Sequence record: PV610739.1
Reading direction: 5' to 3' (one strand)
Length of the DNA: 44,529 nt
From: Escherichia phage SP1
Under the pieces are notes generated by a model. The model worked only from the letters and a program-made list of their open reading frames with translations, was not told the origin of the DNA and made no database searches. Shown here one piece after another: positions 28,914 to 32,871 of this stretch (position 1 is the first letter of the stretch; each line of letters starts with the position of its first letter). Made by a program: the position numbers and the translations under genes.

Positions 28914-28933
28914 GGGGCCATACGGCCCTTTTT
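28914..28933 (+). terminator. rho-independent terminator
   Basis: GGGGCC atac GGCCC then TTTTT; convergence of structural and replication blocks. Confidence 0.7.
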
Positions 28934-29507
28934 AGTTTGAGTTTTCCCAGTCCATTTTTCGCCGCACCAGCGGACTCTCGTAATATTCCTTGCCTTCTAC
29001 TTCCACCAGGGGCCAGTCGTTAACAATTACGTACGGCTCCGCGATATCCTCAATCACACCGTGCGCGCTATGTTGTGCGAACGATACGCCCACCAGGATA
29101 ACACCGGCAACTCGACGGGTTAGATACTCGCGAGCGCAACGGGCCTCGACCAATCCGCGACGGATGCCGCTGGTGGCTTTGACCTCGTAGGTCCAGACGG
29201 CATCAATCATGTGCTCACGGAAGTCGGGGCCGGACTTAACCTTGCGTTTACCAACCATGATAATATCGCCGCGGTCGATAGTATTGGCGCTAAACAGGCC
29301 GGTACGCATAAGTAAGCCTTGCGGAATACAACTGCGTCCTCCTGCCTGCCCTTCAAGGTACATGCCTGCAAACATCTCGCCCAGCACACCGACAAGTCGG
29401 CTTTGCTTGCACGCGTCAGACTTTAAGCGCCACTGGTCAAACTCGACGCTTGCTAACATTGCCGCGATGTGGAATTGTTTACCGGTTATTTCATATTCGC
29501 CATACAT
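28932..29507 (-). CDS. hypothetical protein, possible PD-(D/E)XK-like motif
   Basis: 191 aa; weak D...EVK motif (IDAVWTYEVK). Confidence 0.45.
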   Translation of the reverse strand: MYGEYEITGKQFHIAAMLASVEFDQWRLKSDACKQSRLVGVLGEMFAGMYLEGQAGGRSCIPQGLLMRTGLFSANTIDRGDIIMVGKRKVKSGPDFREHMIDAVWTYEVKATSGIRRGLVEARCAREYLTRRVAGVILVGVSFAQHSAHGVIEDIAEPYVIVNDWPLVEVEGKEYYESPLVRRKMDWENSN

Positions 29508-29549
29508 TGTGAAGTCCTCATTGCTGCGGGCCGAAGCCCGCTATTAGAA

Positions 29550-30104
29550 TTATTTAAGTGCGCTAGTCACCAGTGTTTTTTCCATGTTGCGGAAGTCTTC
29601 CGGCGTCATGAGGATTTTGGACCCGTCCTCGCCAGTGAGCACGACCACAGGCTGGACTTCTTGATCCGCAATGCCGAAGTTAGCGGCTTTAACCGTCTTG
29701 CCGAACGAGGCTACCGTATCCTCGGCAACGCGCATTGCGCTGTTATATGCATTAATCTCGCCATCCAGGAGCACGGACAGACCTTTGAGGCTTTCAAACT
29801 GTTCTGCCGTTGTATCGACCTGAATCTCGTCATGCACGGTCATGTAAGACTCGCCCAGCAATGCGGCATACGCTACCAGGTCGACGATATTGTCTTCCTG
29901 GTGCTTACGGTGCTGGCGCACCAGCTTCAGGCAAATCAGGAAGGTCCAGGCTTCTTGCTCGGTTAGGTCGCGACCGGTAAGAGCGTTAAACACGGCGGCG
30001 ATTTGTTTAGCGCTGCGTTCTTCTTTCGCGTTGTCATAGCCGTTCTCTTTCCCGCGCTGTTCCATAGTGGTGGCGGCGTTCTTGCAGTATTCAAATGCTT
30101 TCAT
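29550..30104 (-). CDS. hypothetical protein
   Basis: 184-aa ORF with RBS AAGGAAAA; no catalytic motif recognised. Confidence 0.5.
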   Translation of the reverse strand: MKAFEYCKNAATTMEQRGKENGYDNAKEERSAKQIAAVFNALTGRDLTEQEAWTFLICLKLVRQHRKHQEDNIVDLVAYAALLGESYMTVHDEIQVDTTAEQFESLKGLSVLLDGEINAYNSAMRVAEDTVASFGKTVKAANFGIADQEVQPVVVLTGEDGSKILMTPEDFRNMEKTLVTSALK

Positions 30105-30156
30105 GATGTTTTCCTTTTTAGTGGGGGCCGGATTGCCCCCGACGCGTTAACTATAG

Positions 30157-30178
30157 TGCAACCAACCTATTGGTTGCA
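30157..30178. promoter_or_regulatory. perfect palindrome TGCAACCAA-ccta-TTGGTTGCA
   Basis: 9-bp arms, 4-bp spacer, in the gap between genes 30104 and 30167. Confidence 0.5.
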
Positions 30179-30637
30179 AGTAAATTTTGCTACGTTTATA
30201 GAATAAATTTTCGGGACCAGATCGCCGCACGCGCGACGGATGGCTTCGATATTCTTCGGGCAGTCTTCAATGATGACCAGTTCGGACACGTCCGCATAGC
30301 ACACCATTTTGAACACAGCGCACGCCTTAAACTCCGGCGGTGGGGTGTCGTCCAGCATGTGGCGCATGAACAACCGGCCTGTAGGGAATACTTCCAATTG
30401 TTCGGCGGTAGAGTCCCAGCATTCGCGCTGCCGGTTAGTCAGATACGCAATCTCGAAGCCTTGCTCTTTGTACATGCGCAGCAACGGCAACATGTCCATG
30501 TTCAGGTCTTCGCGGACGTGTGCTTTGTGCCACTTCGCCCAAAAGGTTGATTTGGTTTTTATGCCGGGCACCAGGTCAGCACGCGCATCACTTGAACCAT
30601 TAATAACGCCATCCAGATCACAAATCAGTAGTTTCAT
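30167..30637 (-). CDS. HAD-superfamily phosphatase
   Basis: N-terminal motif LICDLDGVI (DxDG[TV]). Confidence 0.6.
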   Translation of the reverse strand: MKLLICDLDGVINGSSDARADLVPGIKTKSTFWAKWHKAHVREDLNMDMLPLLRMYKEQGFEIAYLTNRQRECWDSTAEQLEVFPTGRLFMRHMLDDTPPPEFKACAVFKMVCYADVSELVIIEDCPKNIEAIRRACGDLVPKIYSINVAKFTCNQ

Positions 30638-30858
30638 TTTAAGCTCTCAATAAGGGTGTAGCGGGCGCTTCGCGCAGTAACGGAGTTGCATACAAAATGG
30701 CAACGCTTGGTTATGACAAGCCAGCCGGTGAGGTCCAGGCCCAGGATGTATTCCGGGCGGCTGGCGCGCATCACTCGGTCGCGGCGCGGGTCAATGATGA
30801 AGTCCCTTTGCATTTGGTCCACTACCGCGGGGTCGCGGTCAACGATTAAGATATTCAT
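30634..30858 (-). CDS. hypothetical protein (74 aa)
   Basis: Small ORF overlapping both neighbours by a few nt. Confidence 0.4.
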   Translation of the reverse strand: MNILIVDRDPAVVDQMQRDFIIDPRRDRVMRASRPEYILGLDLTGWLVITKRCHFVCNSVTARSARYTLIESLK

Positions 30859-31351: not shown

Positions 31352-31775
31352 TCTTTTCGTATTTGCCGACTATGCGATGCACGCGCTTTGCGGCCTCTTC
31401 ACTGCGTGGGCGCGCATCCGGGTAGTAGCTACCCGTCTGAGTATTGTGCCACGCCACAAGCACCAAATCTTTACGATCAACCTTAGACTGTCTACCTTTA
31501 GGTCGCACGTACTCCTCCGCACGTTTGCAATGTTCCCGCAGCCCTTCGGCAGTGATGCGGTTTAGCGCAACGCTGGTTGTGTATCCGGTGCGCTGCATAA
31601 TCCCCATCAATTCGAAAAGCAGTTCGAAGCGTTCCTCTAACTCCCGGCGCACTTTCTTCTCTCCTTCATATAGCGCCTGGTTGGTGTCCGCCAGCGCGTT
31701 CGCGCGTTCGGCCTGTTCACGGGCTTCGAGGCATTGCGCGGCCCAGTATGCTTTTTCTTCTTGTAAAATTTTCAT
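31311..31775 (-). CDS. hypothetical protein
   Basis: Start ATG 31775 (MKILQEEK) with GGAGA RBS, directly after a minus-strand terminator; helical charged sequence. Confidence 0.5.
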   Translation of the reverse strand: MKILQEEKAYWAAQCLEAREQAERANALADTNQALYEGEKKVRRELEERFELLFELMGIMQRTGYTTSVALNRITAEGLREHCKRAEEYVRPKGRQSKVDRKDLVLVAWHNTQTGSYYPDARPRSEEAAKRVHRIVGKYEKIALYALDPQNDEE

Positions 31776-31792
31776 CGTGTTGTCTCCAGGTA

Positions 31793-31821
31793 TTAAAAAG
31801 GGCGTCCAACCGGACACCCTT
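31793..31821 (-). terminator. rho-independent terminator (minus strand)
   Basis: Minus strand AGGGTGTCC ggtt GGACGCCCT then TTTTT. Confidence 0.55.
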
Positions 31822-31829
31822 AAGATAAT

Positions 31830-31855
31830 GCAACCAATCTAATTACGCAACCAAT
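31830..31855. promoter_or_regulatory. two direct GCAACCAAT copies (31830-31838, 31847-31855)
   Basis: 17-bp spacing, between HNH-like gene stop and the terminator. Confidence 0.45.
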
Positions 31856-32179
31856 TTATTCATAAAAATTCGGGTCGCGCGCTACATCTACCAGATAAAG
31901 GTTGCTCATTCGGTTGCCGTAGTGCCCTGGCGTGCGCTGGCGACACACAACTGCGAAGCCTGGAGGGATTGTATTGCCGGTTTCGATAATCCACGCCACG
32001 CGCGCGCCAGACAGCTTCTTGCCGTTGCATTCGATACGCGTACCGCCATCGGCAGTGTTAAGGTTGCCAATCTTGCAGCCGGTGGACTTCAGACGGATGA
32101 CGCCGGTCTTACTGTCGTAGGTGAATAGTTGGTTAGTCATTGCGACCGAAAAATCGATGGCTTCGAATGTAGTGTTCAT
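31856..32179 (-). CDS. HNH-like endonuclease (possibly degenerate)
   Basis: 107 aa; ARVAWIIETGNTIPPGF...NRMSNLYLV resembles HNH_3-type pattern but catalytic His not evident. Confidence 0.45.
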   Translation of the reverse strand: MNTTFEAIDFSVAMTNQLFTYDSKTGVIRLKSTGCKIGNLNTADGGTRIECNGKKLSGARVAWIIETGNTIPPGFAVVCRQRTPGHYGNRMSNLYLVDVARDPNFYE

Positions 32180-32871
32180 TTTAAATTTTCCTCATTGACT
32201 GCTATTGCGAAGCCGCGCGGAGTGAGCGACCGGATTAATTTGGTGCGGGCAGATTTGCCACCGAGGCGACTATACTGCTTCGAGTACCCTTTTTCAACGA
32301 ATACCGGCTTTTTCTCCGGCATACGAAAGCCATTGCCAGTCCATAAACAGGTCAGCTTTGGGTATGAATCGCGGTCGTTGATGTATTCCGGGAACAACGG
32401 ATGTACGTCATCCTCTGGCAGATAGCCGCCATATTCCCACGGGTCAAACGAGTGGTCTGGCTTACGCCACTGGGTGGATAGCACACTGCGCGGATTCTCA
32501 ATCATATATGGCACTTCAAAGAAGTCACCCAGGTAAGCGGCAATCTTCGCGGTGCGCACGGCCTTAAGCTGAAAGGCTGGGTCGTTCGCACGCTTGCGCG
32601 GGAAAGCTGGCGCACCGCTCACCGCCAGATCCGTGCACGGCGGGAATGCGTAGATAATATCTGGCGTACCAAAATCACCATTCATCGCGCGGTCCACGAA
32701 GTCCAGATCAATAAACTCATTACGATAGCGGATACCTCGACCATAAATCCGGTAGTCCAGGTAAGACCCGTGATCGGCTTCCGAGTAGTTGAAGCAGTAG
32801 CACTTATGCCCCATCTCGGCAGCACGCTCTATCATCAAGCCGCTGCCGTCAAATAATGACCAGATAATCAC
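32176..32871 (-). CDS. cytosine-C5 DNA methyltransferase-like protein
   Basis: Motifs LFDGSG, PPCTD and ENP in canonical order; unusually short (231 aa). Confidence 0.6.
   Translation of the reverse strand: MIIWSLFDGSGLMIERAAEMGHKCYCFNYSEADHGSYLDYRIYGRGIRYRNEFIDLDFVDRAMNGDFGTPDIIYAFPPCTDLAVSGAPAFPRKRANDPAFQLKAVRTAKIAAYLGDFFEVPYMIENPRSVLSTQWRKPDHSFDPWEYGGYLPEDDVHPLFPEYINDRDSYPKLTCLWTGNGFRMPEKKPVFVEKGYSKQYSRLGGKSARTKLIRSLTPRGFAIAVNEENLK

Follow-up and report, generated by a model that had tools for sequence, protein, structure and literature searches.

The gene cluster and its operon

The DNA of Escherichia phage SP1 (PV610739.1) was analysed over its whole stretch of 44,529 nucleotides, which we call the window. 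At positions 28932-32871 it carries a cluster of eight genes (Table 1), two of which code for presumed DNA methyltransferases: a Dam-like enzyme and a short Dcm-like C5-cytosine methyltransferase (C5-MTase) of 231 amino acids (aa). We describe the two enzymes and their neighbours, and consider whether the cluster amounts to a pathway of DNA modification or to a collection of independent functions.

The open reading frames (ORFs) that the original prediction had named were all recovered on the minus strand, at the positions it gave. The 3.9-kb block found megablast matches in 157 phage records, 148 of them with query coverage of at least 80%. The matching records are nearly all Escherichia phages, some classified as Dhillonvirus, the closest being vB_EcoS-101114BS4 with 96% identity. 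Gene order is identical in three annotated relatives, and the layout of Haito_Bas83 (Bas83; 92% identical, 71 annotated genes) agrees with that of the window. The ratio of nonsynonymous to synonymous differences per site (pN/pS), calculated against two relatives, ranged from 0.01 to 0.22 for all nine ORFs tested, as is typical of purifying selection. Conservation in 157 records and low pN/pS together mean that the genes are real and not chance ORFs. The source phage is a Dhillonvirus, that is, an HK578-like lytic siphophage of E. coli.

The cluster forms the promoter-distal part of a leftward operon for replication and nucleic-acid metabolism. Besides the helicase and the DNA polymerase listed in Table 1, the upstream part of the operon encodes a DUF2800/PD-(D/E)xK exonuclease, an Enc34-type single-stranded DNA (ssDNA)-binding protein and a VRR-NUC nuclease. 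A GTGA overlap joins the helicase gene to the Dcm-like gene, and an ATGA overlap joins the latter to the HNH-like gene; in another ATGA, the stop of the 74-aa gene overlaps the start of the HAD gene. At the far end, a hairpin lies between the gene of the 191-aa protein and a convergent tail-fibre gene (plus strand, ending at 28909). This hairpin probably marks the end of the operon and terminates transcription from both directions.

Table 1. Features of the cluster and of the adjoining part of the operon
Feature	Positions	Strand	Remarks
Dcm-like orphan DNA C5-cytosine methyltransferase, 231 aa	32176..32871	-	short form, mini target-recognition region
Phage Dam-family N6-adenine DNA methyltransferase, 161 aa	30839..31324	-	PF05869, NPPY
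Degenerate HNH / I-HmuI-like protein, 107 aa	31856..32179	-	phrog_99 'HNH endonuclease', E=3.5e-15
154-aa protein, Dhillonvirus-restricted	31311..31775	-	phrog_10530 only; pN/pS 0.12-0.16
74-aa protein	30634..30858	-	phrog_10685 only; pN/pS 0.12-0.13
Predicted stand-alone HAD-superfamily phosphatase, 156 aa	30167..30637	-	DLDGV at residues 7-11; phrog_415, E=2e-36
DUF6378-domain protein, 184 aa	29550..30104	-	PF19905, E=9.6e-10, 39.1 bits against a cut-off of 27.1
Probable PD-(D/E)xK-fold nuclease, 191 aa	28932..29507	-	last gene of the leftward operon
SNF2-family helicase	32868..34382	-	PF00176, E=1e-10; directly upstream of the cluster
DNA polymerase, family A (DNA_pol_A)	35243-37534	-	same operon, upstream
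G+C-rich hairpin, probable bidirectional terminator	28910..28933	.	terminator-like sites on both strands

The two methyltransferases

In the Dcm-like protein, motif I reads F7-D-G-S-G11, motif IV P77-P78-C79 and motif VI E125-N126-P127; K172 and the segment R214-S-L-T-P-R-G220 follow. Ten of these residues (F7, S10, G11, P77, P78, C79, E125, N126, P127 and K172) are invariant in 50 family members, and the gene is the most constrained of the ORFs tested (pN/pS 0.01-0.04 against the two relatives). An AlphaFold2 model built from 50 homologues reached a predicted local distance difference test score (pLDDT) of 91 and a predicted template modelling score (pTM) of 0.89. Its best Foldseek matches are C5-cytosine methyltransferases, with DNMT3A/3B at E~1e-7. 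The predicted model has the fold of a class I S-adenosylmethionine (SAM)-dependent methyltransferase, and among solved structures C5-MTases are the most similar to it. Judged by its residues, the enzyme appears to retain the full catalytic core of C5-MTases: the SAM loop FxGSG, Cys79 within PPC and Glu125 within ENP.

Comparison with sequence profiles gave less. PF00145, the family of canonical C5-MTases, matched 30 of the 50 family members weakly (best E=1.3e-6), and profile-profile alignment of the family with E. coli Dcm aligned motif IV alone, with low probability. Neither motif VIII (QxRxR) nor motif X (GN(A/S)V) is recognisable in the family alignment. Invariant residues on and before the strand 174-179, namely an arginine near position 167, D168 and K172, may substitute for these motifs. 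The protein has no separate target-recognition domain: the stretch from the last core strand to the motif-IX-like RSLTPRG comprises only some 40 residues (180-213).

The original prediction had regarded the length of 231 aa as unusual. It is in fact the norm of the family, which comprises 2,879 clusters at 90% identity in the protein collection; most of its 820 representatives at 50% identity have 210-260 aa. The protein is thus short in comparison with a canonical C5-MTase and normal within its own family. A homologue was found by tblastn in 1,510 of 50,697 phage records, and among the carriers are Drexlerviridae (Hanrivervirus), Vequintavirinae, Krischvirus, and phages that infect Klebsiella, Vibrio or other hosts. 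When an enterobacterial phage encodes a short C5-MTase that lacks a target-recognition domain, this should not be taken to signal hypermodification. In the BASEL annotation, the Dhillonvirus gene is already named 'Dcm-like C5 cytosine methyltransferase'.

One member of the family has been studied experimentally. Phage K42 is a KarlJaspers strain whose genome is 95.4% identical to that of Bas06 (bioRxiv 10.1101/2023.08.16.553469). The window protein and bas06_0055 of KarlJaspers/Bas06 (236 aa) share 53% identity over residues 2-231 (BLASTP, E=2e-85); both match phrog_757 with E<=2e-82, and C79, E125 and K172 align to C82, E128 and K175. Wang et al. found that four of four K42 mutants escaping retron Ec86 had a disrupted 711-bp 'Dcm' gene (bioRxiv 10.1101/2023.08.16.553469). 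Expression of K42 Dcm raised the content of 5-methylcytosine (5mC) in the multicopy single-stranded DNA (msDNA) of Ec86, as measured by liquid chromatography coupled to mass spectrometry (LC-MS), and a C82A/E128A/K175A/K176A mutant, in which the two lysines were changed jointly with C82 and E128, caused no such rise (bioRxiv 10.1101/2023.08.16.553469). Further, defence was lost when the CCTGG site of the msDNA was mutated, and the predicted structure of K42 Dcm superposes on DNMT3A (same preprint, which according to a paper citing it later appeared in Cell Rep 2024).

The Dam-like protein is easier to classify. Its match to PF05869 covers nearly the whole profile (E=1e-36, 126.6 bits against a cut-off of 28.1), NPPY stands at residues 64-67 of the 161-aa form, and the protein also matches phrog_111 (E=8e-55) and the PADLOC model of orphan methyltransferases (E=2e-11). 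The 161-aa form starts with the ATG at 31324; the mechanically delimited ORF reaches a TTG at 31351, and the relatives annotate the 486-bp form. With the PF05869 match of this protein and the FDGSG, PPC and ENP motifs of the Dcm-like one, the two methyltransferases that the original prediction had recognised by NPPY and by FxGxG, PC and ENx stand confirmed. The score in TIGR01712 (phage_N6A_met) is 86.1 bits, below the equivalog cut-off of 97.05, so that neither orthology to the characterised GATC enzymes nor, as a consequence, specificity can be taken as given. In its strong Pfam match, its NPPY motif and its small size, the protein resembles the Dam enzymes of T1-type phages (PF05869/TIGR01712). 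Those enzymes target GATC, which we take to be the target of the window enzyme as well. Within the Dam coding sequence, near its start and just past the stop of the 154-aa gene, a hairpin with a perfect 8-bp stem (AGCTGGCG/CGCCAGCT, 31280-31300) is terminator-like on both strands.

Restriction sites, neighbouring genes and the question of a pathway

Palindromic hexamers are strongly avoided in the window (positions 1-44529). The ratio of observed to expected sites (O/E) lies below 0.25 for 18 of the 52 palindromes with at least five expected sites, as against 0.4% of non-palindromes (Mann-Whitney p=1e-9). For example, GCCGGC occurs 0 times with 21 expected, GGCGCC 0 with 20, AAGCTT once with 17, and CAGCTG and GGGCCC 0 with 14 each. 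The tetramer CTAG is depleted (18 sites, 60 expected) and GATC mildly so (142, with 204 expected). Avoidance of palindromes is the trace left when type II restriction enzymes exert selection, and on general grounds it would not be expected under wholesale replacement of a base. Further, GC-rich sites are among those avoided, which speaks against a cytosine methylase of promiscuous action. No avoidance is seen for CCWGG (164 sites, O/E 0.98); this would fit with protection of the site but is not evidence for it. In published tests, Dhillonvirus phages were sensitive or only moderately resistant to restriction-modification (RM), unlike the 7-deazaguanine-modified Queuovirinae (PMC8594841, PMC11990801).

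If the genes of the cluster acted in one pathway, they might be expected to travel together. By tblastn, nine window proteins were compared with half of the Bas06 genome and with the 10 kb around the homologue in Phi1 (Krischvirus) and in SSE121 (Seunavirus). The comparison recovered the Dcm-like gene in all three and, beyond it, just a 30%-identical Dam in Bas06; the HAD, DUF6378, 154-aa and 191-aa genes are absent from the three contexts of other phage families checked. A remote HAD homologue lies in Bas06 on the other strand, about 5 kb away, and Dam, Dcm and HAD are there kilobases apart. Pfam scans of 26 window ORFs and the annotation of the 71 Bas83 genes brought no TET/JBP dioxygenase, thymidylate-synthase-like hydroxymethylase or glycosyltransferase, and no 5-HMUDK, aGPT-Pplase, DpdA, PurZ or Mom, an absence that is not absolute given the many small ORFs without annotation.

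These results bear on the proposal, made in the original prediction, that the C5-MTase-like protein and the HAD enzyme belong to a base-hypermodification pathway. In such a pathway the two proteins, perhaps with the help of ORFs of no assigned function, would modify cytosine after replication, a C5 adduct being installed or primed by the MTase-like enzyme and elaborated by the other enzymes. The idea draws on the several neighbour genes without known function and on Krischvirus SAP, a phage with a homologue of the Dcm-like gene whose DNA is reported to contain cytosines of hydroxymethylcytosine (hmC)/glucosyl type, of unknown origin and without a known pathway (PMC13390438). Against it, TB34 is reported to be 99.96% identical to SAP and yielded no modified nucleosides detectable by high-performance liquid chromatography with mass spectrometry (HPLC/MS) (PMC13390438). 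Because the gene is present in both phages (OX001802.1, 40538-41254 in TB34; OZ034687.1, 40621-41337 in SAP), it cannot explain the difference in their modification. The version in Phi1, also a Krischvirus (L011:4989-5705), is 62% identical in protein sequence to that of the window. With a length normal for the family, a 53%-identical homologue that makes 5mC, partner genes not linked, in Hanrivervirus, Krischvirus and Seunavirus, to a family found in well over a thousand phage records, no hallmark enzyme in the Bas83 annotation or among the ORFs scanned, strong palindrome avoidance joined to restriction sensitivity, and unmodified TB34, the hypermodification claim is not supported, and we hold it to be extremely improbable.

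The neighbouring proteins themselves suggest separate accessory functions gathered in one operon, and not steps of a pathway; this concerns the HAD, DUF6378, nuclease and HNH-like proteins as well as the two small ones of no assigned function. The 107-aa HNH-like protein has no Pfam match. When it is compared by eye with the HNH_3 pattern, the canonical histidine is absent and the usual positions hold A and C instead (..GARVAW.., ..VVCRQ..); the sole histidine, H86, is conserved in gp17 of Edwardsiella phage eiAU-183. This gp17 is 40% identical to the window protein and matches PF22083 weakly. The gene is restricted to Dhillonvirus and four Edwardsiella phages of eiAU type, with pN/pS of 0.02-0.05 against the two relatives. 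The original prediction was thus right in describing an HNH-like protein without an obvious catalytic His and, by DLDGV and phrog_415, a HAD protein. Between the 154-aa and HNH-like genes, Bas83 has an additional ORF of 243 bp (Bas83_0037), which is missing from the window (31776-31855).

For the 154-aa protein there is no match in Pfam, NCBIfam, PADLOC or PDB. Its homologues form 214 clusters, all on phage-sized contigs and none with a domain, and its N-terminal part resembles a coiled coil by eye. The label 'DNA ligase' for this protein has no domain or structure match behind it, and the depositor of MZ234016 remarks in the record: 'Possible DNA ligase but no evidence'; unsupported labels of this kind have spread through PHROG 10530 and several GenBank records.

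The 156-aa HAD protein stays under the cut-off in HAD models (Acid_phosphat_B of Pfam, 23.8 against 27 bits; NCBIfam, E=0.015) and looks like the 3'-phosphatase domain found in polynucleotide kinase. Remote similarity links it to bas06_0071 (28% over 76 aa, E=6e-5); both match phrog_415, and bas06_0071 also matches phrog_505 at positions 158-292 of 295. Only HAD-type matches were obtained for the window protein, with neither a Walker A motif nor a kinase domain, and no BLASTP similarity to T4-type polynucleotide kinase was found, so the label 'polynucleotide kinase' was rejected.

The DUF6378 protein also matches phrog_9871 and phrog_474, and its gene varies from 522 to 594 bp among relatives owing to indels. 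'Phosphofructokinase' is the label of PHROGs that match DUF6378, and is likewise unsupported. Judged by title or abstract, none of the three papers that mention DUF6378 deals with its function. The labels 'DNA ligase', 'polynucleotide kinase' and 'phosphofructokinase' within the block should not be propagated. The 231-, 191-, 184-, 154- and 107-aa proteins have no significant sequence match to solved structures, and PADLOC recognised only Dam among the cluster proteins; the others matched nothing in it, neither a restriction enzyme nor a defence protein.

The 191-aa protein calls for another alternative to be considered, namely that Dam and the Dcm-like enzyme mark phage DNA as self while this protein and/or the HNH-like one attacks unmethylated DNA of the host or of competing phages, in effect a reversed restriction-modification system. 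Its invariant residues include E44, D81, E108 and K110, its predicted fold is PD-(D/E)xK-like with restriction enzymes among the matches, one depositor labelled it 'restriction endonuclease', and it shares the operon with both methyltransferases; the HNH-like gene, for its part, is under strong constraint and tied to the Dcm-like gene by translational coupling. Still, several genes separate the nuclease from both methyltransferase genes, the nuclease is confined to 7 clusters and the methyltransferases are widespread, any methylation-dependent activity would be conjecture, and PADLOC gave no restriction-enzyme match. We therefore think self/non-self marking very improbable.

Some observations concern the rest of the operon. 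The DUF2800/PD-(D/E)xK exonuclease (466 aa) adjoins the Enc34-type ssDNA-binding protein on the minus strand (37760-40273), and the two are likely a recombination pair. Counting DUF2800, VRR-NUC and the 191-aa protein, the operon encodes at least three proteins of nuclease fold. A Cys-rich ORF of 57 aa (34558-34731, minus strand) is probably a zinc ribbon and has no significant Pfam match. In relatives it is labelled 'Lar-like restriction alleviation protein' (Bas83) or 'HNH endonuclease' (UDS3lw); if it truly alleviates restriction, no other anti-restriction gene would lie closer to the cluster.

Proposed function and comparison with known systems

We suggest that the cluster very probably contains two independent, ordinary orphan DNA methyltransferases, set among unrelated accessory genes of the replication operon. 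The Dam-family enzyme (N6-adenine) and the Dcm-like enzyme (C5-cytosine) would carry out plain SAM-dependent methylation and place N6-methyladenine (6mA) and 5mC at specific sites of replicating phage DNA. A subset of sites would thereby be shielded from the restriction enzymes of the host. The Dcm-like protein of the window would then be active, possibly on CCWGG, Dam would act on GATC, and the phage would gain an anti-restriction benefit, the standard reading for orphan phage methyltransferases. The present analysis supplies the evidence on fold, motifs, homology, distribution, selection and site statistics; that the homologue forms 5mC comes from the literature.

There are several points that weigh against this interpretation. 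Firstly, the Dcm-like protein of the window has no PF00145 match at E<=1, and neither the protein nor its family profile has a sequence match in PDB; its assignment as a C5-MTase thus rests on predicted fold, motifs and homologue. Secondly, 5mC formation was measured for K42 Dcm, from which activity in Dhillonvirus is extrapolated, and 53% identity does not fix target specificity; in the retron study itself, CCWGG was assumed and not mapped (bioRxiv 10.1101/2023.08.16.553469). Thirdly, the methyltransferase content of Drexlerviridae in the BASEL collection is not simply linked to restriction resistance (PMC8594841), so the anti-restriction benefit is an extrapolation too. Finally, four of the eight proteins have no assigned activity, and the coupled and constrained HNH-like gene adjoins a C5-MTase gene both in Dhillonvirus and in eiAU-183.

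The missing PF00145 match, together with the want of a separate target-recognition domain, could be taken to mean that the Dcm-like protein is inactive, or acts on a substrate other than DNA (for example RNA, as DNMT2 does), and is kept for DNA binding or as a decoy. We find this very unlikely, since catalytic and SAM-binding motifs are invariant in 50 diverse members, the constraint on the gene is extreme, and the homologue methylates DNA in vivo in a manner that requires the catalytic residues. The last point invites a speculation. Because of the translational coupling, the strong constraint and the adjacency to a C5-MTase in Dhillonvirus and in eiAU-183, the HNH-like protein might be no dead homing endonuclease but a working partner of the C5-MTase, a DNA-binding or specificity factor that replaces the target-recognition domain, or a reader of 5mC. 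Alternatively, the PD-(D/E)xK nuclease might spare phage DNA marked by methylation and degrade that of the host. We consider both readings unlikely.

The cluster and the family are already known, the former as an annotated core of a common coliphage genus and the latter through published 5mC formation. Retron Ec86/Eco1 is known to be triggered by this family, and Dhillonvirus carriers may therefore be sensed by it. In the Dhillonvirus phage98, the mutations that allow escape from Retron-Eco7 lie in an unnamed gene of no known function, and expressing this gene triggers the retron (PMC12640716).

Established systems of DNA hypermodification comprise glucosylation of hmC in T4, the combination of TET, C5-MTase and glycosyltransferase, the thymidine pathways with 5-HMUDK and aGPT-Pplase, and the 7-deazaguanine system of Queuovirinae with DpdA. 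The cluster has in common with them only an enzyme of C5-MTase fold; in phages that encode TET, such an enzyme provides 5mC as the substrate. It differs from them in that the defining downstream or precursor enzymes were not found in the scans described above, and in its restriction phenotype and site statistics.

A closer parallel is the homologous operon of eiAU-183, in which DNA polymerase, VRR-NUC and SNF2 helicase genes are followed by those of the HNH-like gp17, the C5-MTase gp16 and the Dam gp15. The slot after the helicase is thus filled by an HNH-like gene, a 330-aa C5-MTase of PF00145 and a Dam of PF05869. Unlike in the window, the C5-MTase there is this longer PF00145 protein and not one of the short family, the HNH-like gene precedes the methyltransferase gene instead of coming after it, and no HAD, DUF6378 or 191-aa gene is annotated downstream. 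The methylases of eiAU were read as anti-restriction by the original authors (PMC3025963).

The Dcm of K42/KarlJaspers is alike in belonging to PHROG 757, in length (236 aa, and 231 in the window) and in the identical spacing of Cys, Glu and Lys, and both predicted structures best resemble the catalytic domain of DNMT3A/3B. It differs in 47% of residues, by which sequence specificity may differ as well, and where it has the second Lys of a KK pair, the window protein has Leu (K172-L173). The context is also different: dcm of Bas06 lies among small genes of no assigned function, and the window gene between those of the SNF2 helicase and the HNH-like protein.

Finally, the window protein shares with canonical C5-MTases (PF00145; M.HhaI, M.HaeIII, E. 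coli Dcm) and with DNMT3A/3B the motifs I (FxGxG), IV (Pro-Cys) and VI (Glu-Asn-x), and its near-C-terminal Arg/Thr-Pro-Arg segment resembles motif IX of the canonical enzymes. Unlike these, it is about 100-240 residues shorter and has no discrete target-recognition domain. In this last respect it is like DNMT3, which likewise has a small insert rather than a separate domain for target recognition.

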